Assembly (NCBI GenBank): GCA_965205845.1
Contig: CBDBIG010000003.1
Coordinates: forward strand, 20,453-84,452
DNA: 64,000 nt
Source of the DNA: a bacterium
Lineage (GTDB): Bacteria; SAR324; JACQKK01
Direction: 5' to 3'
The notes beneath the pieces were generated by a model. The model made no database searches, had not been told where the DNA came from, and worked only from the letters and a program-made list of their open reading frames with translations. Positions 16,161 to 57,986 of this stretch are shown here, one piece after another; position 1 is the first letter of the stretch, and every line of letters begins with the position of its first letter. The position numbers and the translations under genes are program-made.

Positions 16161-16361
16161 AGGCAACGCGACCTTGGCACGAAATCGGGCTACCAAGAGA
16201 TACCTTCGGTGTGGATCACGAGGCAGGGTATGTTTGCGCAACACGCTAAAAACTTGTCTAAAAGCGGATGGCACGCCATGCCTAAAAATATAGCATAAGA
16301 AAGTCTGCGCCTATTTTAACGGACAGCAAGCGACAACACCATTTTTGAGCGTGTCAGTAAG

Positions 16362-16772
16362 TGGAGGCGGCGGGAGTCGAACCCGCGTCCTAATGGTGGT
16401 GAACTAAACGTTACTACAGGCTTAGCGACGTTTTGCGTTTAACAATGAGGATGTTGAAGCCGTCGCGGTCTCACCTCATGCGAGTTTGCCCTAGGAATTC
16501 GCCCAAAACACCAGCAAACCACTGTGCATAGGCTAGCACCATAAATGACACGGAAAAAGCGCTTATCGTGCGTGGGCACCTCCGCGGTCCAGCCCCTAAA
16601 TTAATAGGGGTGTAAGCACTCTGCTAAACCGCAATTAAGCGGCGAGGGCTACTGGAGCGTAGTTGCTGTTATTGGCATCTACGTGTGTGAACGATTTTTT
16701 ACGTGGCCCTTCGCTCAACCACGGCCTGCTCGCCTAATATCTCCTTCCACAGTCGAATGCCATAACGCCCCC
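16362..16772 (-). ncRNA. ssrA: tmRNA (ssrA), standard one-piece; predicted tag peptide ANNSNYAPVALAA
   Basis: 5' GGGGGCG...GCATTCGAC and 3' GGACGCGGGTTCGACTCCCGCCGCCTCCA form a tRNA-Ala-like acceptor with G3:U70. The 3' domain aligns with E. coli ssrA. The resume frame is GCC AAT AAC AGC AAC TAC GCT CCA GTA GCC CTC GCC GCT TAA. Confidence 0.8.
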
Positions 16773-16856: not shown

Positions 16857-17963
16857 CTAAAGCAACTTGTCTAAAAGCGCAAGGACGTGCTTGGCAATGT
16901 GCTGGGCAGCATCGCCATAAAAAAGGGTATCGCAGCGCTTTTCCATGGTGGTAAGGCGTTTTGGGGCATCAAACAAGGCAACGATGGTTTTAGCCAATTG
17001 CTGGCCATTTAAGTTAGCTTGCTCAAGCAACACGGCTGCCCCTGCTTTGGCTAACCGCTGTGCGTTCTTGCGTTGATGATCCCCGCTTGATCGTGGAATG
17101 GGGGTTAGGATGGAAGCCCTTTTGGCACAGGTGAGTTCGTGAATGGTACTGGCGCCTGCACGGGCATACACCAAATGGGCTTTGGCATACATGGCTGGCA
17201 TGTCTTTAATAAAGGTTAAGGCCTCTGCTTGCAAGCTGGGGTATTTGGCTTGCTCTGCTTGCACCAAGGCCAAGTCAGCTGCCCCTGTTTGGTGAATAAT
17301 GCGCAGCGGCCTCCCCCATTCGGCCAAAAAAGGCAGGGCCGCAATAACCGCCTTGTTGAGCTGATGCGCCCCCTGACTTCCCCCAAAAATGAGCAAGCAA
17401 GCTGGCGTTTGTGCCCGTTTAGGGCTGTTGGCGTTGGGTTGGCGCAAGGCTAAAATGTCTTGGCGAACGGGGGAACCGGTAACCACGCCATGGCGAAAGT
17501 ACGAGGCCACGCCTTCCTCCTGGGGCAAAAAGGCCGCGTGGGCCCAGGGCCCTAACAGGCGGTTGGCCAGCCCTGGGTGTGCATTTTGTTCTTGTAATGC
17601 CACCTTGCACCTAAGCAGCAAGCCCAATGCCACAAAGGGTGCCGAGGCATACCCCCCCACGCCAATAATAAGGTGAGGGCGATAGCATACAAGGGCCCAA
17701 AGGCATTGCAACAGGGCCAAGGGAAGTAAACATAAGGTGGTTAAACGCCGCCTTAACCCCATGCCTGCCCAGCCGCGGATAGCTGCTAAGTGAATTTTAT
17801 AACCCAGCTGGGGTGCCAAACGGCGCTCGATGCCGTAGTACGCTCCACCAAAGCGCAGCTCGCACCCAGGGTTTTGTTTTTGAATGGCTTGGGCGATGGC
17901 CACCCCTGGAAAAAAATGTCCGCCAGTCCCCCCTCCAGCGATTAAAATGCGATACGCTCTCAT
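16857..17963 (-). CDS. murG: UDP-N-acetylglucosamine--N-acetylmuramyl-(pentapeptide) pyrophosphoryl-undecaprenol GlcNAc transferase
   Basis: N-terminal ILIAGGGTGGHFFPGVAIA. Confidence 0.8.
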   Translation of the reverse strand: MRAYRILIAGGGTGGHFFPGVAIAQAIQKQNPGCELRFGGAYYGIERRLAPQLGYKIHLAAIRGWAGMGLRRRLTTLCLLPLALLQCLWALVCYRPHLIIGVGGYASAPFVALGLLLRCKVALQEQNAHPGLANRLLGPWAHAAFLPQEEGVASYFRHGVVTGSPVRQDILALRQPNANSPKRAQTPACLLIFGGSQGAHQLNKAVIAALPFLAEWGRPLRIIHQTGAADLALVQAEQAKYPSLQAEALTFIKDMPAMYAKAHLVYARAGASTIHELTCAKRASILTPIPRSSGDHQRKNAQRLAKAGAAVLLEQANLNGQQLAKTIVALFDAPKRLTTMEKRCDTLFYGDAAQHIAKHVLALLDKLL

Positions 17964-17967
17964 AAGG

Positions 17968-19140
17968 CTAACCCGTAGCTCCCTTGCGTAACAAGGTACT
18001 TCGATGCGGTGCTACACGCAGCAAAACCTGGCGGCGCTGTAAACCCAACAATAAACCTGTCATCCACAAATTGGTAATGAGCGAGGCCCCTCCATAGCTC
18101 ATAAAAGGCAGGGGCAAACCTTTTGCAGGCACCAAACCCATTACCACAAATAAGTGGATTAAGGTTTGCAAGGCCAACGTACAACTGAGTCCACTGGCCA
18201 TTAAGCGTGCAAAGCGCTCTTCTAAATGCCAACTAAGCCTAAAGGCACGCCAAAAAAAAACCGCATACAATGCCAGTAAGGCCACCACCCCTAAAAAACC
18301 CGTTTCCTCTCCCCAGATCGAGAAAATAAAATCGGTGTGTGCATCGGGCAAAAAGAGCCGTTTTTGGCGGCTGGCACCCAGCCCCAACCCCAACAAGCCA
18401 CCCCCACCCAATGCGAGGTAGCTTTGTATAATTTGAAACCCTGAGTCAAGGCGATCCGCCCAAGGATCTAAAAAAGCCGTAACGCGGCGCATGCGATAGG
18501 GTTCGCTAAAGGTCAATACCCCCAGCACTACCCCCGCCACCATCCCTGCCAAACCAAGGTGCGCCAAGGGTGCACCCCCAATAAACAATACCATAAATAC
18601 GGCACCCACCAGCAAGGCGACCCCCCCAAAATCGGGCTGCAACAACACCATAAAAAGAGAGACCCCTGTCCAAAGCAGCGGGCGCATTTGATGATACCAA
18701 AAATCTGCTTCACGCCCACGGTAAGGGGCAAGGTGGTGTGCAAACAACAAAATCAAGGTGGGCTTAAGAATCTCAACGGGCTGTAAGCGAAAAAACCCCA
18801 AATCAAGCCAACGCTGGGCACCCCCCACTTTAACCCCCCAACTAGGGACCAGGGTAAGGGCAAGCAAAAACAAGCAGACATACACACTGGGCATGGTTAG
18901 TTTACGCAGCAGGCTCGTGGGCATTAAGGTGGCACAAAAAAGTGCCCCCAAACCAAGAACGGTATGTACCATATGGCGCTGAAAAAAAAATAAACTATCG
19001 CCGTAAAGCTGTTGGGCAATGGGCCCGCTAGCACTGGCAATGGCCACCGAGCCAATCAACAACAACAGCACTACACACCCCAGCAAGTGGAGGTCCCAGC
19101 CACGCGAATAATGGGCGAAAGCGTTTTTGAAAAAACCCAT
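17968..19140 (-). CDS. ftsW: SEDS-family peptidoglycan glycosyltransferase (FtsW)
   Basis: Polytopic membrane protein of the FtsW/RodA family, adjacent to murG. Confidence 0.7.
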   Translation of the reverse strand: MGFFKNAFAHYSRGWDLHLLGCVVLLLLIGSVAIASASGPIAQQLYGDSLFFFQRHMVHTVLGLGALFCATLMPTSLLRKLTMPSVYVCLFLLALTLVPSWGVKVGGAQRWLDLGFFRLQPVEILKPTLILLFAHHLAPYRGREADFWYHQMRPLLWTGVSLFMVLLQPDFGGVALLVGAVFMVLFIGGAPLAHLGLAGMVAGVVLGVLTFSEPYRMRRVTAFLDPWADRLDSGFQIIQSYLALGGGGLLGLGLGASRQKRLFLPDAHTDFIFSIWGEETGFLGVVALLALYAVFFWRAFRLSWHLEERFARLMASGLSCTLALQTLIHLFVVMGLVPAKGLPLPFMSYGGASLITNLWMTGLLLGLQRRQVLLRVAPHRSTLLRKGATG

Positions 19141-27705: not shown

Positions 27706-27804
27706 TGGCGGAGATGCGTGGGAATCGAACCCACCCAAAGCGGTATCAGCGCCCTGCACACGGGTTTGAAGCCCGGGAAGCCCACCAGTGACTCATCCAT
27801 CTCC
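27706..27804 (-). tRNA. selC: tRNA with anticodon UCA and a ~26-nt variable arm; candidate tRNA-Sec (selC) or UGA-reading tRNA-Ser derivative
   Basis: Anticodon loop CUUCAAA is identical to the E. coli selC loop. Discriminator G73, encoded CCA, 99 nt. The D-arm is not canonical 6/4. Confidence 0.55.
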
Positions 27805-28016: not shown

Positions 28017-28089
28017 GGGGATGTAGCTCAGATGGGAGAGCACGACGCTGGCAGTGTCGGGGTCAGGGGTTCGATCCCCCTCATCTCCA
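28017..28089 (+). tRNA. tRNA-Ala (GGC)
   Basis: Cloverleaf with anticodon loop CTGGCAG and G3:U70. CCA not encoded. Confidence 0.85.
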
Positions 28090-50950: not shown

Positions 50951-52189
50951 ATGGACGTGAAAGACAACGTACTCTACCTGGGGGGTTGTAATGCCCAAGC
51001 ACTGGTTGAGGCCTTTGGTTCGCCCTTGTATGTGTACGAAGAGGCGGTTTTGCGTGAGCAATGCCGTGTTTTGCGCCAAAGTTTTCAAACCTTGCAGCCT
51101 GACTTTCATTATGCCGTAAAAGCCAATAACAACCCACATATTTTGCGCATTTTTAAAGACGAAGGTATGGGGCTTGATGCAGTCTCTTCCTACGAGGCAC
51201 GGCTGGGGTTAGAATTAGGGTTTTTGCCAAAGCACATTGTGTTTACAGGCAATAATTGCACCGAAGAGGATTTTTGCTACTGCCTTAAAAAAGGCATTTT
51301 GGTCAATGTAGGCTCCCTTGGTGAATTGGATACGTTTGGGCGCCTTAACCGCGATGGCGAGGTGTGTTTACGCCTTAATCCTGATGTGGGGGCAGGGCAT
51401 CATCGGCATGTGATTACGGGTGGTCCCGATGCCAAGTTTGGCATCTCTCACGATCAGGTACATATCGTACGCAAACTGCTTAAAACCCACAACTTGCGCC
51501 TGATTGGCGTACATTGTCACATTGGCACGGGCATTTTGCGCGTCGAGGACATGATGGAGGCGATGGAGGTAATGCTCCAAGCTGCTCAAGGGTTTGATTT
51601 TCTTGAGTTTATCGACTTTGGCGGTGGTTTTGGGGTGCCTTATCACCCCGATGAAAAGCCCCTACCCTTAAACGCACTGGCTGAAATGATGGAAGCCCGT
51701 TTTGAGGACTTTTGCAAAGACTATGGGCGCTCACTGCGAATGGTGTTTGAACCTGGCAGGTTGCTTACCGCCCAAGCGGGTGTGTTGCTTGGGCGCGTCA
51801 CCAACATATCCCACACCTCAGCCCATGTATTTGTGGGGATGGATACGGGGTTTAATCACCTGATTCGCCCCGCTTTTTATGGATCCCATCACGAAATTGT
51901 GAATGCCAGTCAAGTACAAGGCGACCCCCAAGAGGTGGTGGTGGTGGGCAATATCTGCGAATCGGGCGATGTGTTCACCCAAAACAAGCAAGGCATTGAG
52001 CACCGCTGGATTACCAAACCCAAAATAGGGCAGGTTTTGGCACTGCTCGATGCTGGGGCATATGGCATGAGCCTTAGCATGCAATACAACATGCGCCCCC
52101 GCCCTGCAGAAGTGTTGGTGCAGGCAGGCGAATCGAAACTCATTCGCAGACGCGAGGTGTATGAGGATTTAATGCGCCAATTTGTCTAG
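50951..52189 (+). CDS. lysA: diaminopimelate decarboxylase
   Basis: YAVKANNNP PLP-lysine motif; fold III decarboxylase. Confidence 0.8.
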   Translation: MDVKDNVLYLGGCNAQALVEAFGSPLYVYEEAVLREQCRVLRQSFQTLQPDFHYAVKANNNPHILRIFKDEGMGLDAVSSYEARLGLELGFLPKHIVFTGNNCTEEDFCYCLKKGILVNVGSLGELDTFGRLNRDGEVCLRLNPDVGAGHHRHVITGGPDAKFGISHDQVHIVRKLLKTHNLRLIGVHCHIGTGILRVEDMMEAMEVMLQAAQGFDFLEFIDFGGGFGVPYHPDEKPLPLNALAEMMEARFEDFCKDYGRSLRMVFEPGRLLTAQAGVLLGRVTNISHTSAHVFVGMDTGFNHLIRPAFYGSHHEIVNASQVQGDPQEVVVVGNICESGDVFTQNKQGIEHRWITKPKIGQVLALLDAGAYGMSLSMQYNMRPRPAEVLVQAGESKLIRRREVYEDLMRQFV

Positions 52190-52230: not shown

Positions 52231-53718
52231 TTGAACTCAAAATTTTTAAGCGCGAGGTTTACACTCAATTTGGAATTCACGAATACCTTGTATTATGGGG
52301 ATAATTTAGGCGTTTTAAAAAACCTCTCTAAAAGAGACCCGTTCATCGACCTGATTTACAGCGATCCACCTTTTAACTCAAAGAAGAACTACAATATACT
52401 ATACAAAGACCTCATCACCTCAAAAGAAAACGGCGAAAAAGCCACAGCACTCAAAGAGGCCTTTAAAGATACCTGGAGCAATGTTGAAATCGGAAATGAA
52501 CTCGAAGAATTAAAAAGGCTGGATAACCTCAAGATCTTTCAATTTCTCCACAACAACAGAGGCGTTTTTGGGGATGATCAAATGATCTATCTCACCATGA
52601 TGGCCATTCGCGTGTACTACATGAAAAAAGTGTTGAAGGAGACGGGAAGTTTTTACCTGCATTGCGATCCAACCATGAGCCACTACCTTAAGGTGTTGCT
52701 TGATATTATCTTTGGCAAAAACCATTTTAGGAACGAGATTGTGTGGCATTACAGACGATGGACTGCTGCCTCACAACACTTTCAAAAGATGCATGACATC
52801 ATTTTTCGCTACACAAAGTCTGAGACCTTTTGCTTTAACCTTCAGTATGAACCCTACGGTGACTGGATTAAAAAAGATTACGGCTATCTTGATGAAAAAT
52901 CAGGGAAACGCTGGCGTTGGCATACCGTAAAAGGAAAACGCTACAAAGTGTTTTTGGAGGATGAAGACCAGGGCGTAAAACTTAACGATGTTTGGCAAAT
53001 TCCCCCAATAGGATCCACAGCAAAAGAACGGTTGGGCTACCCCACCCAAAAGCCCGTGGCATTGTTAAGGCGGGTTATCGAAGCAAGTAGTAACAAAGGT
53101 GATGTGGTCGCGGATTTTTTTTGCGGCTGTGGGACCACCATTGCCGCAGCCCAAGAATTGGAGCGGAAATGGCTTGGGGTCGACATTAGCCATTTGGCTG
53201 TTGGCCTGATTGAAGACAAGAGGCTAAAAAATCTGAAACCCATTCCAAGTTATGGGGTCAAAGGATTTCCGAGCGACGTGGCAGAAGCAGAAAAGCTGGC
53301 AACAGAGAAGCCGTTTGAATTTGAAAACTGGATTGTTGAATACAAGCTTCACGGGCATGGCACCCAAAAAACGGGCGATGGAGGATTTGATGGGCATCTT
53401 GCGCTCGACTTTGTGGGCAAAAGGATCTCTTGCATCATCGAGGCAAAAGGCGGAAAGTGTGGCATAAAAAATATCAGGGAGTTTCATGCTGTCATGGCAA
53501 AGCAAGGGGTCGATGTGGGGCTGTTTGTGTGTTTTGAAAAGCAAGTTAGCGATGGGATGCGAAAATACTGTGATGCGGAGGGCTTGATTGACATAGGCGG
53601 TGGAAGCACCCTCAACATGTTTCAAATTCAAAAAATAGGCATTCTCACGGTGGAATCCTTGCTGGCCAATCAATACCCCCACTGGTTAAACACGTTTATT
53701 GCCAACCAAACCTACTAA
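52231..53718 (+). CDS. beta-class amino-DNA methyltransferase (N4C/N6A) fused to a C-terminal Mrr_cat-type PD-(D/E)xK nuclease domain
   Basis: SDPPF (motif IV) precedes DFFCGCGTT (motif I). The C-terminus has TGDGGFDGH...IIEAKG. Local GC is visibly lower than the flanks. Confidence 0.65.
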   Translation: MNSKFLSARFTLNLEFTNTLYYGDNLGVLKNLSKRDPFIDLIYSDPPFNSKKNYNILYKDLITSKENGEKATALKEAFKDTWSNVEIGNELEELKRLDNLKIFQFLHNNRGVFGDDQMIYLTMMAIRVYYMKKVLKETGSFYLHCDPTMSHYLKVLLDIIFGKNHFRNEIVWHYRRWTAASQHFQKMHDIIFRYTKSETFCFNLQYEPYGDWIKKDYGYLDEKSGKRWRWHTVKGKRYKVFLEDEDQGVKLNDVWQIPPIGSTAKERLGYPTQKPVALLRRVIEASSNKGDVVADFFCGCGTTIAAAQELERKWLGVDISHLAVGLIEDKRLKNLKPIPSYGVKGFPSDVAEAEKLATEKPFEFENWIVEYKLHGHGTQKTGDGGFDGHLALDFVGKRISCIIEAKGGKCGIKNIREFHAVMAKQGVDVGLFVCFEKQVSDGMRKYCDAEGLIDIGGGSTLNMFQIQKIGILTVESLLANQYPHWLNTFIANQTY

Positions 53719-53830
53719 AAACCCTTTTTATCGGTGCAAAATTAAGCCAATCTAGGCAAACCTTGTACCCTCAGCATTTTATTTCAAACACTCGCTTCCC
53801 CCCAGCAATATAGGTTACCCATTCTTTACC

Positions 53831-56512
53831 GTGTCTTCTCCCCTACCCCCATACTCCCCCAAAACCCTTGAAACCCCCATTTACCAACGCTGGCTTGGGG
53901 CAAACTGCTTTGCTCCTGCCTCAGACACGGCAAAGCGCGTCGAACGAGCGGGGGAGAGCTTTTGCATCGTGATTCCGCCGCCCAACGTAACGGGAGTCTT
54001 GCACCTTGGGCATGCATGGGATAGCACCTTGCAAGATATTTTAACGCGCTGGATGCGCATGGAAGGCCGCAATACCCTTTGGCTACCAGGAACAGACCAT
54101 GCAGGCATCGCCACCCAATGGATGGTTGAACGTCAGCTGCAAGAAGAGGGCAACAGCAAGGAAGAGATTGGGCGCGAAGCCTTTATGGAACGCGCTTGGG
54201 ACTTTAAAAACGCCTCCCATGGCTCCATTCGCAAGCAGCTCGAATGCCTCGGGGTTTCCTGCGATTGGTCGAGGGAACGCTTTACCCTCGACGAAACCCT
54301 TTCAAAAGCTGTGCGGCGTGTGTTTGTGCAACTCTACCACGAAAAGCTGATTTACCGCGGCCTGCGCATGGTCAATTGGAGCCCCGCTTTGCGCTCTGCG
54401 GTTTCAGACCTTGAAGTGCTGCACAAGGAGGTGAAAGGGCATTTGTGGAGTTTTATGTATCCTTTTGCCGATGGTGGTAAGATAGCGGGGCAAAAGGGGA
54501 TTGTCATTGCCACCACTCGCCCAGAAACGATGCTTGCCGATGGTGCCGTGGCTGTGCACCCCGATGATGAACGCTACCGTGCCATGGTGGGAAAATACGT
54601 AACCATTCCTTTGGCAAACCGCGATATTCCCATTATTACAGATGGCTATGTAAAACCAGAATTTGGTTCCGGGGCGGTTAAAATTTCCCCCGCCCACGAT
54701 TTTAATGACTTTGAGGTGGGGCAAAGGGCCAAACTTCCCTTTATCACCGTGATGGATGAAACAGGGACGATGGCAGGCAAGGGAGTCCCGACCCCATATC
54801 AAGGCCTTGATCGCCAGGCAGCACGCAAGCAAATGCTTTATGACCTTAAAGCCAAAGGCTTGCTGGTTAAAACAGAAACCCTCACGCACTCGGTGGGGCA
54901 TTGTAGCCGTAGCGGCGTAACCGTCGAACCACGTATCTCAGAGCAGTGGTTCGTCTCGGTAGATGGGATGGCTAAAACCGCCCTTCAGGCCGTTCATTCC
55001 CGTCAAATTGAGTTACTCCCCCAGTTTCAAGAGAAGATTTTTGCCGAATGGATGGAAAATATCCACGATTGGTGCATTTCGCGCCAGCTATGGTGGGGGC
55101 ATCAAATTCCTGCATGGCATTGTGCCAAATGTCAGCAATATAGCGTTGTCGAAAACGCCCCCAGTGTTTGCGAACACTGTCAAAGTTCTCAGATTACGCA
55201 GGCGACCGATGTCCTCGATACCTGGTTTAGCTCTGCCTTGTGGCCCTTTAGCACCATGGGGTGGCCCGAAAATACCCAAGATTTGCAGTCATTTTACCCC
55301 ACCTCGGTACTGGTTACGGGCTACGACATTTTGTTTTTTTGGGTGGCACGCATGGCCATGATGGGCTTAAAATGTATTCCTGAGCACCCCCCCTTTCATC
55401 AAGTGTTGCTCCATGGCCTGTTGCGTGACGAAAAGGGTGTTAAAATGTCCAAAACCAAAGGCAATGGGCTCGACCCTGTGGAGGTGGTTGAAGAATACGG
55501 GGCAGATGCCTTGCGGATGGCGTTGGCAGTGGGTACGGTGCTGGGGCAAGATTTATCCTTGGGGATGAATGCCGTCGAAGCCATGCGCAATTTTGCCAAT
55601 AAACTGTGGAATGCTGCACGCTTTGTGTTGGGATATCGTGGGCATATGGAACAACCCAAGGCACTTGAACACATGGTGCTAAGCGACTATGACACATGGT
55701 TGCTGACACGCTTAAACCTGGCCTGTGCCGCGGTGCGTCAAAACCTTGAGCAACGGCGCTTTAACGAGGCCGCGAAGGCGGTGTACGCCTTTGTGTGGGA
55801 TGAATTTTGCGATTGGGGCTTGGAAGCAGCCAAACCGATCTTAAATGGGCAAGATTCTCTGGCAGCGCAAGCGAGCTATGCCACGTTACACCACTGCTTG
55901 CAGAACACTTTACGCCTGCTGCATCCATTTATGCCCTACGTTACGGAGGCTTTGTGGGGGCATTTAATGCCGAAGGATGGTTTTGTGATGTTGCAAAGCT
56001 ATCCCAAAGGGGTCACCGCCAAGGATTTAAGCACAAGCCAGCGGGAAACAGCGCAAAACATTGCCCATGCCAACCGTTTTGTGAGTGCGTTGCGCACCTT
56101 ACGGAGCGAAAATCATGTGGCACCCAAAGCGCGGGTTGAAGTATTGGTATTGAGCGAAAGCCCGACCTTGCTTAAAACCTTAGATCAGCAGCAGACCATT
56201 GTATGTGCCATGGCAGGTGCCAGCACCATTTTGCCCGTAACGGTCGCACCCACCCAAAAAAGTTGGATTAAGCAAATTGGGCGGGGTTTTAGCGTGTATA
56301 TCAAGCTTCCACAAGCCTCGTTACAGGCTCAAAAAGCACGTATCCAAAAAGATGCAGCCAAGTTAGACCAAAAAATAACCCCACTGCAAATGAAATTGAA
56401 TAACCCTGAATTTGTGGAAAAAGCCCCCGCAGCCGTGGTGGAAAAAACCCGTCAAAAACTTGCCGAATTACAGGCACAGCACGCCCAACTGCATGCAGCC
56501 TTGCATCCATAG
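53831..56512 (+). CDS. valS: valyl-tRNA synthetase
   Basis: PPPNVTGVLHLGHA (HIGH), KMSKT, C-terminal coiled-coil. Confidence 0.9.
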   Translation: MSSPLPPYSPKTLETPIYQRWLGANCFAPASDTAKRVERAGESFCIVIPPPNVTGVLHLGHAWDSTLQDILTRWMRMEGRNTLWLPGTDHAGIATQWMVERQLQEEGNSKEEIGREAFMERAWDFKNASHGSIRKQLECLGVSCDWSRERFTLDETLSKAVRRVFVQLYHEKLIYRGLRMVNWSPALRSAVSDLEVLHKEVKGHLWSFMYPFADGGKIAGQKGIVIATTRPETMLADGAVAVHPDDERYRAMVGKYVTIPLANRDIPIITDGYVKPEFGSGAVKISPAHDFNDFEVGQRAKLPFITVMDETGTMAGKGVPTPYQGLDRQAARKQMLYDLKAKGLLVKTETLTHSVGHCSRSGVTVEPRISEQWFVSVDGMAKTALQAVHSRQIELLPQFQEKIFAEWMENIHDWCISRQLWWGHQIPAWHCAKCQQYSVVENAPSVCEHCQSSQITQATDVLDTWFSSALWPFSTMGWPENTQDLQSFYPTSVLVTGYDILFFWVARMAMMGLKCIPEHPPFHQVLLHGLLRDEKGVKMSKTKGNGLDPVEVVEEYGADALRMALAVGTVLGQDLSLGMNAVEAMRNFANKLWNAARFVLGYRGHMEQPKALEHMVLSDYDTWLLTRLNLACAAVRQNLEQRRFNEAAKAVYAFVWDEFCDWGLEAAKPILNGQDSLAAQASYATLHHCLQNTLRLLHPFMPYVTEALWGHLMPKDGFVMLQSYPKGVTAKDLSTSQRETAQNIAHANRFVSALRTLRSENHVAPKARVEVLVLSESPTLLKTLDQQQTIVCAMAGASTILPVTVAPTQKSWIKQIGRGFSVYIKLPQASLQAQKARIQKDAAKLDQKITPLQMKLNNPEFVEKAPAAVVEKTRQKLAELQAQHAQLHAALHP

Positions 56513-57986
56513 GCGGAGCAATTTTTTCGAACTTGCATCCTATTGAAGGGGGCGTACTCAAAGCAGATGAAATGGGTATTTGGAATCGTGGCCGTGATGC
56601 TCATTACGCATCTCATTTTTAAGCGTGCAGGGCGCAAGTAACCTCCTTTGTTTGTGCGTGAACACTCGCGGATTTGGACGCGCTTTACGCCGCCGCTGCG
56701 GCCCATGGTTTTGCAATGGTTTTGCAAGAGACCCACAACACACTAAAACGCTTTGGGATCCGCGGAGCAGGTGCAACCCAAGGGCTAGCGCAACAAACCG
56801 CTCTCGGATGAAGATAGGCACCGCAACGATAAAATCGCGCGCATTCGTGCTGGAGGTGAACGCCCCTTTGCCACCTACAAAAACCGCTACGCTCTCGCCC
56901 AAACATGATTTATGGAATGGGCTAAAAACATAACTGCCCCCGGCATCGCTGCGAATAGCCTACAACATACGCGAAAGGGGCCAGATTCCTGACGCTCTAT
57001 GGTCTGTCAGACCTCAGATTATGCTGCATCGATGTGTCCGATAGTCCCGCAATCGCCTTGAAACCGCCCATCGAATTCACCACAATCCGCCCTCAAAATC
57101 GCAAGTAACTGCAAACCAGTTATCCCACAAGGGTCATCTCCAAGCCCTACTAAGGTGAGTATTGCGAAAATGTTACGATTAAGAAAGCTTAAGCGAGTAA
57201 ACACAATGCGCTGCCATCGAAATCGTGTAGACAAAATACCCTTAAACTTAACGCACAACCATGCGCAGCAAAGCCAGAACATCCCACACAAGCACCACGG
57301 CTGCCATCAGCCAAAGACACCTCAGCATCCACGTGCCAAGCTGTGGCCATTGGCGTCTTATCCACTTGCGAAAAGCGAAGGTTAACAGCAAGAGCAACAG
57401 TGCCGCTTCCCATAAGCCCAATCCAAACATGGTTAGCGTTTTGCCTAGAAGGAATAGGAGGAATTTGTGGTGGTCATTGCAGAAGGGATTTGGTAACGCT
57501 TGAGCGAATCAGCAGCCCTCTTTGCACAGATTGCATGCCAAGAGGCTCGAGAACTCGTTGCACCCCGTTTTTTTGCGCTTGGTGCACCATACATAGCACG
57601 AGGCAGGCCTTTTTGTCATGGAGGCGAATGGCTATGTGGCACCCATGCTACCAAAGCCCAGCTTAGGCGATTGCGGGTAAAAAGCGCAAGCGTTGGCGTC
57701 CAATTGAGGTGGCCAAGTGGTGGTTCCTTCCTTTTTCCAAACGGGCTTCCCGTAAAGGCCCTGCTCGATACGCATTTTTTCAAAAGGCAAATGGGCGTTG
57801 TTAGAAGTTCCATCCGTTTTCCATAACCCAAGGGAACAAAGCCATGAGGGTTTGCAAGGTTCGTTTTGTTGTCATGCTTACAACTTCCACGAAGCGTCCA
57901 TGGGGTAACCTGTGCTAGCATGTGGGGGGCGGAGGTTTATAGGTGGTGGGTGAGATCAATTTTTTAGTTTTTTCTTAGCATAAAAG

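Follow-up and report, generated by a model that had tools for sequence, protein, structure and literature searches.

The fusion gene and its domains

The window analysed here, a stretch of 64,000 nt from contig CBDBIG010000003.1 of a SAR324-lineage bacterium (assembly GCA_965205845.1), carries between a lysA-like gene and valS a single gene in which a DNA methyltransferase (MTase) is joined to a C-terminal nuclease domain. A sequence-only reading of the window had described it as a solitary open reading frame (ORF) of 495 aa at 52231-53718; the ORF, on the plus strand with a TTG start, is present exactly as described. Both neighbours share its strand, and the 64 kb contain neither another copy of the fusion nor a partner gene for it. 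Residue numbers below refer to this maximal ORF, and coordinates to the window (Table 1). The true start is probably not at 52231 but at a TTG at 52270, which would give a protein of 482 aa: this is the length of the database copy P0001, the N-terminus read from this codon, MEFTNTLYYGDN, agrees with the family consensus MxxxNTLYYGDN, and a GAGGT is found 11 nt 5' of it. A scan for promoters and terminators around the gene gave no more sites than shuffled controls, so that a separate transcription unit is not supported.

Pfam identified N6_N4_Mtase at residues 39-324 (158.2 bits, cut-off 26.7). The motifs follow the beta-class order, with DPPF at 45-48, a variable region at 166-270, PTQKP at 271-275, and FCGCG at 297-301, and the assignment to the beta-class amino-MTases, made earlier from a DPPF followed by FxGxGTT, is thereby upheld. 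D45, P46, P47, and F48 of catalytic motif IV are invariant in all 120 close copies and in all 93 aligned distant copies, and F297, G299, and G301 of motif I, which binds S-adenosylmethionine (SAM), are invariant in the family; residues 50-77 form a conserved loop that was modelled with low confidence. An AlphaFold2 model of the full-length protein (predicted local distance difference test [pLDDT] 81, predicted template modelling score 0.80) gave as its best PDB matches EcoP15I Mod, M.RsrI, M.BceJIV, M.MboIIA, CcrM, and Mbo45V Mod, all of them beta-class amino-MTases, and the C-terminal part of the MTase core aligns to M.RsrI, CcrM, M.BceJIV, and EcoP15I Mod. The predicted target is N6-adenine rather than N4-cytosine, since D45 is invariant in the family and the best PDB matches are N6-adenine enzymes; this use of the DPPY/F as opposed to the SPPY/F signature is a heuristic.

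The C-terminal domain had been called an Mrr-type PD-(D/E)xK nuclease from the motifs GDGGFDG and IIEAK, which lie at residues 382-388 and 402-406. Pfam confirmed the call, matching Mrr_cat at residues 360-448 with 33.1 bits in the full protein (cut-off 21) and 35.8 bits in the isolated C-terminal region; all 21 of the family members tested also matched. On alignment, E365, D383, D387, E404, and K406 are all present in the window protein, as parts of motif I (F364-E365), motif II (D383-G-G-F-D387-G), and motif III (E404-A-K406), and the helix acid of the domain is E417. Modelled alone (pLDDT 86), the domain consists of helices at 350-372 and 412-425 and strands at 388-394, 397-405, and 429-434. 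The nearest solved folds found by Foldseek, at probabilities of 0.85-0.99, are the MspJI nuclease domain, BamHI, the FokI cleavage domain, EndoMS, and EcoT38I, consistently of the PD-(D/E)xK type. When PDB sequences were searched with a profile of the domain, uL30 and Rpb5 came up as marginal matches only and were set aside as uninformative.

Table 1. Positions in the 64-kb window of the fusion gene, its domains and motifs, its neighbours, and other features
Feature	Position	Strand	Remark
Probable true coding sequence of the methyltransferase-nuclease fusion	52270..53718	+	482 aa, TTG start
N-terminal half of beta-class MTase core, residues 39-165	52345..52725	+	Pfam, model, alignments
Catalytic motif IV, DPPF	52363..52374	+	residues 45-48
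Target-recognition domain, residues ~166-270	52726..53040	+	hypervariable among relatives
C-terminal half of MTase core, residues 271-334	53041..53232	+	motif X PTQKP, SAM-binding motif I
SAM-binding motif I, FCGCG	53119..53133	+	residues 297-301
Linker and C-terminal Mrr-family PD-(D/E)xK nuclease domain, residues 335-495	53233..53715	+	Pfam, model, alignments
Nuclease motif I	53320..53325	+	F364-E365
Nuclease motif II	53377..53394	+	D383-G-G-F-D387-G
Nuclease motif III	53440..53448	+	E404-A-K406
lysA-like diaminopimelate decarboxylase, upstream flank	50951..52189	+	stop 42-81 nt before fusion gene
valS (valine-tRNA ligase), downstream flank	53831..56512	+	MTase-valS adjacency kept in relative L083
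Stretch between valS and next long ORF	56513..57986		~1.47 kb
Transfer-messenger RNA (tmRNA) gene	16359..16772	-	Rfam gathering-level match
tRNA-Sec gene	27710..27804	-	Rfam gathering-level match
Ordinary tRNA gene	28017..28089	+	Rfam gathering-level match

The conservation of the nuclease motifs can be read against LlaGI, in which the Mrr-family motifs were defined as F-E (I), D-x-G-x-D (II), and Q-x-K (III); D74, D78, and K94 were critical on mutagenesis, and mutants of E38 in motif I and Q92 in motif III were partly active (PMC2790908). The 120 close relatives of the window protein keep D387 and K406 in 117 cases each, E370 in 106, and E404 in 103, with Q at this last position in a further 10. 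In 95 copies from named genomes, at 34-49% identity, D383, G385, D387, G388, K406, and G408 show little or no variation, and the same six are nearly invariant in the 120 close relatives. Positions 365 and 370 differ between copies, and at 404 there are 46 copies with S, 29 with Q, and 20 with E. The family-invariant D383, D387, and K406 correspond to the three critical residues of LlaGI, and the varying positions 365/370 and 404 to the noncritical ones. An acidic residue 11 positions after the lysine, in the next helix (position 417), is found in 63 of the 75 members with S or Q at 404. This is the helix position from which the missing carboxylate has been proposed to come in enzymes of the Cfr10I/NgoMIV type and in Mrr, where E231 follows K221 by ten residues (PMC2790908). 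The window protein itself, with a sub-clade of the family, has the fully canonical E...D...ExK set. It scores 17.4-20.1 bits against the Pfam family NA-iREase1, below the cut-off of 27, with its catalytic residues intact, and members that score above this cut-off still keep D383, D387, and K406.

The ratio of nonsynonymous to synonymous substitution (dN/dS), estimated by the method of Nei and Gojobori for eight orthologue pairs, is 0.03-0.19 in the nuclease domain, compared with 0.03-0.17 in the MTase cores. The nuclease domain is thus under purifying selection, as are the MTase cores to which it is joined.

A mobile family with exchanged recognition domains

The sequence-only reading had regarded the fusion of an MTase with an Mrr_cat nuclease as an unusual pairing. 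This did not hold: at least 120 full-length homologues were found at 43-78% identity, most with both Pfam domains and, when named at all, entered as "site-specific DNA-methyltransferase," "DNA methyltransferase," or "restriction endonuclease." A scan of reference genomes, with one genome per species, gave at least 576 family loci; the 80 that were retrieved come from Sphingomonas, Acidobacteriota, Chloroflexota/Dehalococcoidia, Streptomyces, Planctomycetota, Aquificota, Bacillota, and a metagenome-assembled genome (MAG) of the Bathyarchaeia. An exhaustive profile search with the C-terminal domain alone returned 3,243 clusters (at 50% identity) at E ≤ 1e-3 and about 1,727 at E ≤ 1e-10. The nuclease domain lies nearly always at the extreme C-terminus in the best 150 of these matches; short matches of 150-300 aa, which might have been independent nucleases or parts of split systems, were rejected as such, since the tail of an MTase is still found at their start and marks them as truncated gene calls. 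On these two grounds the nuclease module is essentially specific to this methylase chassis.

A literature search for N6_N4_Mtase-Mrr_cat fusions, for beta-class MTases with nuclease domains, and for tandem MTase arrays with exchanged recognition domains found no description of the family, whose genes REBASE curators may already list, and no motif assignment for any member was found in the literature. Two candidate descriptions were rejected: a paper on Haloferax HVO_A0006 deals with a nuclease fragment from the N-terminus of a IIG enzyme of the gamma class, and one on Metamycoplasma hominis deals with unrelated MTases. Two further members are recorded here for their composition or setting. P0194, a metagenomic representative of 537 aa, carries a C-terminal Peptidase_M78 domain (IrrE/ImmA-like) after N6_N4_Mtase and Mrr_cat, a domain that may have been added for regulation or may stem from fusion by read-through. 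At L084:9687-11929, P0004, a copy 65% identical to the window protein, has as neighbours on the other strand a MethyltransfD12 and an N6_N4_Mtase gene, two further MTases that make this a local methylase cluster.

Several loci hold the gene in tandem. Five MTase-nuclease copies stand head to tail at L001:6955-14327, separated by gaps of 11 nt, with a sixth, diverged MTase on the other strand (16918-18483); L002:7095-11963 has three head-to-tail copies and a truncated fourth at the end, L003:6811-11425 has three, and L088:8904-11999 has two. Compared domain by domain at L001, L002, and L088, the array paralogues are 88-100% identical except over query residues ~166-270, where identity falls to 4-33%. 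The matching region of beta-class MTases carries the target-recognition domain (TRD). Across the 120 relatives, mean pairwise identity is 59% in the N-terminal MTase core, 73% in the C-terminal core, and 44% in the nuclease, compared with 24% in the TRD, and the TRDs fall into 64 types at 50% identity. In 75 pairs a chassis more than 85% identical is combined with TRDs less than 35% identical, and 27 pairs show the reverse. TRDs have also been replaced between orthologues of different genomes, with a TRD dN of 0.47-0.65 and a chassis dN of 0.01-0.15.

The family has no recurrent partner gene. ORFs within 5 kb, called by a simple longest-ORF heuristic, were clustered for 82 loci, and no neighbour recurred beyond generic ABC ATPases and the synteny of Sphingomonas. 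Among 146 immediate flanking ORFs, called in the same way and searched with Pfam and PADLOC, no family appeared more than four times, and no gene for a helicase, nuclease, controller, integrase, or defence function recurred. We conclude from these two surveys that the fusion gene is a stand-alone unit.

The family is mobile as well as chromosomal. Full-length members lie on plasmids in Rhizobium, Mesorhizobium japonicum (pMLa), and Candidatus Megaera, and in 28 phage records. In temperate phages they occupy the integrase/immunity region: gp48 of phage Hippo is next to a serine integrase, gp37 of phage Amgine lies between integrase/repressor genes and lysis genes, and MPV1_55 is directly downstream of a CI-like repressor on the same strand. 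The analogous position in phage Panchino, between the lysis cassette and the integrase, is held by gp28, which a passage in a review, attributing the finding to Dedrick et al. 2017, describes as a single-subunit restriction-modification (R-M) system. As a candidate for a characterized member of the present family gp28 was rejected, since it combines HSDR_N_2 with a gamma-class N6_Mtase in 827 aa and has no detectable similarity to the fusion protein (BLASTP E=1.7). A pair of related loci shows the module present and absent. At L088:8904-12141, two MTase-nuclease genes stand between valS and tRNA-Leu(CAG), with a degenerate duplicate of this tRNA between the copies (85 nt, with a Leu-type long arm and anticodon CGG, called tRNA-Pro by ARAGORN); at L089:8694-10127, a single tRNA-Leu(CAG) is found with no insert. 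Comparison of the occupied with the empty site indicates that the module moves as a unit.

The low GC content of the window gene, which the sequence-only reading took as a sign of horizontal acquisition, was confirmed as an observation: at 0.438, as opposed to 0.509 for the window, it is the lowest among all 1488-bp windows in the 64 kb. The interpretation was not supported. GC at third codon positions is 0.51, near the 0.53-0.59 of neighbouring genes, so that the dip arises mostly at codon positions 1 and 2, that is, from amino-acid composition. A relative, L083, with a ValS 82% identical, has an orthologue in the same place upstream of valS (78% identical overall, 90% in the TRD, 65% in the nuclease) and the same GC dip (0.437 against 0.534); given the shared site, any acquisition must be older than the split between the two. 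Direct and inverted repeats flanking the gene were limited to short matches at chance level, no att-like or insertion-sequence-like boundaries were found in the window, and there is no tRNA or integrase near the gene. The window gene is a long-resident copy of a mobile family and no recent arrival.

In three loci the family is a neighbour of valS: it precedes valS on the strand of that gene in the window (52270-56512) and at L083:222-4483, and lies downstream of it on the opposite strand at L088:6001-11999. The L088 insertion is independent, because its copies belong to another sub-clade and are only ~40% identical; the triple adjacency could be a coincidence or a hotspot. After that of L083, identity to the next ValS proteins drops to 51-57%; among named sources, SAR324 and Candidatus Lambdaproteobacteria MAGs come nearest (51-53%), and these low identities place the window in a poorly sampled lineage. 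Elsewhere in the window, the stretch downstream of valS contains only seven small ORFs, of 114 aa at most, and none of them matches a Pfam family; the stretch itself has no Rfam match at E ≤ 0.1 and no similarity to the fusion gene, and its AT skew is positive (0.07-0.25). The tmRNA, tRNA-Sec, and ordinary tRNA genes are the only Rfam matches at gathering level in the window, and the tRNA-Sec gene indicates that the organism uses selenocysteine.

Function of the fusion protein

We favour, with a probability of roughly 0.55, the reading that the protein is a self-contained single-polypeptide (Type IIC-like) R-M enzyme with a Mod-like chassis; the earlier suggestion of a compact single-chain R-M module agrees with this. 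Pfam and the models place MTase and nuclease domains in one polypeptide, as in Type IIC/IIG systems, and in standard nomenclature an enzyme with both activities in one chain is Type IIC (PMC12707154). The N-terminal two-thirds would act as a Mod-like beta-class N6-adenine DNA MTase whose central TRD (~166-270) sets the DNA sequence recognized, and a linker of ~25 residues would tether the C-terminal Mrr-family nuclease, a cleavage module of the nonspecific FokI/MspJI-like type. The TRD would bring the enzyme to its site, where it would probably bind in dimeric form, as do M.RsrI, CcrM, EcoP15I Mod, and other MTases of the beta class. On host DNA it would use SAM to methylate the target adenine, and on unmethylated incoming DNA the tethered nuclease domains would cut nearby, as in FokI- and MmeI-type enzymes, so that a single TRD would serve both activities and methylation would give self-protection. 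Observed, and in support of this reading, are the domain architecture, the intact catalytic motifs and purifying selection in both domains, the absence of a conserved partner, the exchange of TRDs on a constant chassis, and the occurrence of the family on phages, plasmids, and chromosomes. Cleavage of DNA, its block by the enzyme's own methylation, the oligomeric state, and the position of the cut are here predictions from sequence.

Several points weigh against this reading. The Foldseek matches of the nuclease domain have weak E-values (~0.01), the wider family mostly has S or Q in place of the classical motif III acid, and most family members match NA-iREase1, a Pfam family named as inactive restriction endonuclease. 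In the pair formed by the window and L083, the nuclease is 65% identical with omega of ~0.19, as opposed to 83-90% and 0.07-0.12 for the MTase cores and TRD; dS is ~1.2 in this pair, near saturation, so that omega is rough, and all catalytic residues are kept in both nuclease domains. Many chromosomal copies are single among housekeeping genes and stably inherited, as in Sphingomonas orthologues at 94-96% identity and in the window/L083 pair, which is also typical of conserved orphan MTases. If the site were asymmetric and methylated on one strand, an extra rule for self-protection would be needed, as in Type III systems and MmeI, and none is visible in the sequence.

The best placed of the alternatives, though an unlikely one, is that the protein is an orphan adenine MTase with an epigenetic or housekeeping role, in which the endonuclease-fold domain is a nonrestricting accessory for nonspecific DNA binding, dimerization, or processivity. 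The model for such a domain is the C-terminal domain of CcrM, which is needed for CcrM activity. A solitary gene between housekeeping genes, at the same site in a relative and probably cotranscribed with lysA and valS, would suit an orphan, as would flanks that elsewhere consist mostly of housekeeping genes with no defence-island signal, the resemblance of the C-terminal domain to "inactive" NA-iREase1, and the replaced motif III acid in most of the wider family. However, a noncatalytic domain would have no reason to keep D383, D387, and K406 across 34-78% identity, and the same three residues are catalytically critical in LlaGI (PMC2790908). Regulatory MTases hold one specificity for long periods, whereas here TRDs swap among close paralogues and orthologues, a turnover that one would not predict for an orphan with a regulatory role. 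Arrays that combine as many as five specificities and the fully canonical E-D-ExK of the window protein likewise speak against an orphan.

It is improbable that the gene is a selfish, addiction, or abortive module, in which the nuclease would be a latent toxin checked by the protein's own methylation and would lead, on disturbance, to postsegregational killing or suicide and not mainly to the direct cutting of invaders; the sequence-only reading had offered this idea as a self-controlled nuclease. Type II R-M systems are known to act as addiction modules, and a single mobile gene on plasmids, in phages, and at a tRNA site, with a weak TTG start that would hold expression low, is compatible with this. 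Such behaviour would, however, be a consequence of R-M activity more than a separate mechanism; long vertical inheritance, strong purifying selection, and TRD diversification fit breadth of defence better, and Pfam found no sensor or regulatory domain in the fusion protein.

A modification-dependent (Type IV-like) nuclease fused to a methylase, which would cut foreign-methylated or own-methylated DNA, is very improbable: the nuclease is indeed of the Mrr_cat type, named after an enzyme that restricts methylated DNA, but in EcoKMrr and MspJI this dependence comes from a separate N-terminal reader, a winged helix and an SRA domain, respectively (PMC12707154), no modified-base reader (winged helix/Mrr_N or SRA) has a Pfam match in the fusion protein, whose N-terminal 334 residues are MTase, the Mrr-family motifs of LlaGI act in cleavage that is blocked by methylation and not directed at methylated DNA (PMC2790908), and an enzyme that cut what its own MTase had methylated would kill the cell. 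Mrr_cat is the catalytic module only, and the domain is an Mrr-type nuclease with no implied dependence on modification.

If the nuclease is active, the single-polypeptide R-M enzyme favoured here would be about the smallest known type to join restriction, modification, and recognition in one chain, at roughly half the size of the MmeI and BpuSI types and from different parts, a beta-class Mod-like methylase and a C-terminal Mrr nuclease. A wider claim, to which we would give somewhat less than even odds, is that the family makes up a major class of R-M enzymes that has escaped recognition, minimal at ~480 aa and in effect a Type III Mod that lacks a helicase but carries a nuclease of its own and a plug-in TRD. 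Its arrays would be both multispecificity defence batteries and a recombinational library from which new specificities arise, and the window gene would be a solitary, long-resident member. The window gene is ordinary for its family; it is the family that merits attention, for its TRD-swapped arrays, its minimal size, and its blanket annotation as methyltransferase. Annotated only as "DNA methyltransferase," its members would be counted as orphan methylases in censuses of defence and R-M systems, which would then understate restriction capacity, including that of temperate phages. With 64 TRD types in 120 relatives, natural swapping suggests that the constant chassis could be a modular scaffold on which new specificities are built, and this has practical value for engineering enzymes and for assigning methylome motifs. 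If the nuclease is instead noncatalytic, the family would be a clear case of an endonuclease fold recruited as an accessory domain of a methylase.

Comparison with known systems

EcoKMrr (Type IV) shares with the window protein the nuclease family, Pfam Mrr_cat with GDGGxDG...xK, but it has no MTase and owes its modification-dependence to an N-terminal winged helix, a reader that the window protein lacks. FokI and MspJI are alike in having a recognition module followed by a tethered, nonspecific C-terminal PD-(D/E)xK cleavage module; their recognition modules, however, are not MTases, FokI having a separate M.FokI and MspJI reading 5-methylcytosine through its SRA domain. In the Type ISP enzymes LlaGI and LlaBIII, an Mrr-family nuclease with D-x-G-x-D and (Q/E)xK works within a host-protective, methylation-blocked single-chain R-M system. 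Their nuclease is N-terminal, and they have a superfamily 2 (SF2) helicase motor and a gamma-class MTase, none of which occurs in the window protein; no SF2 helicase-like ATPase domain, the mark of Type ISP, was found by Pfam in the 482-495 aa of the fusion.

The Type IIC/IIG enzymes MmeI, BpuSI, Eco57I, and Panchino gp28 also unite restriction, modification, and recognition in one chain, with one TRD for both activities and no partner gene; TRD exchange alters their specificity, and prophage examples defend lysogens. They differ in having an N-terminal nuclease, a gamma-class MTase (N6_Mtase/MmeI_Mtase/Eco57I), and a length of 830-1,000 aa or more. The window protein departs from this canonical IIG layout with a reversed order, beta-class MTase first and nuclease at the C-terminus, in ~480 aa.

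The Mod subunits of Type III systems (EcoP15I, Mbo45V, and those of Helicobacter pylori) are N6-adenine MTases of the beta class, in which conserved cores enclose a variable TRD, and are among the best structural and PADLOC matches of the fusion protein. Type III systems need an adjacent Res helicase-nuclease, whereas the fusion has its nuclease directly attached and no ATPase; no res-type SF2 helicase-nuclease gene is present at the window locus, where the flanks are lysA and valS, and no helicase is recurrent in the 82 loci or 146 flanking ORFs. Allelic replacement of the TRD on a constant chassis is common to Type III Mod and the present family, and Type I hsdS, Type III mod alleles, and the MmeI family likewise keep their chassis constant while their specificity modules are exchanged rapidly.

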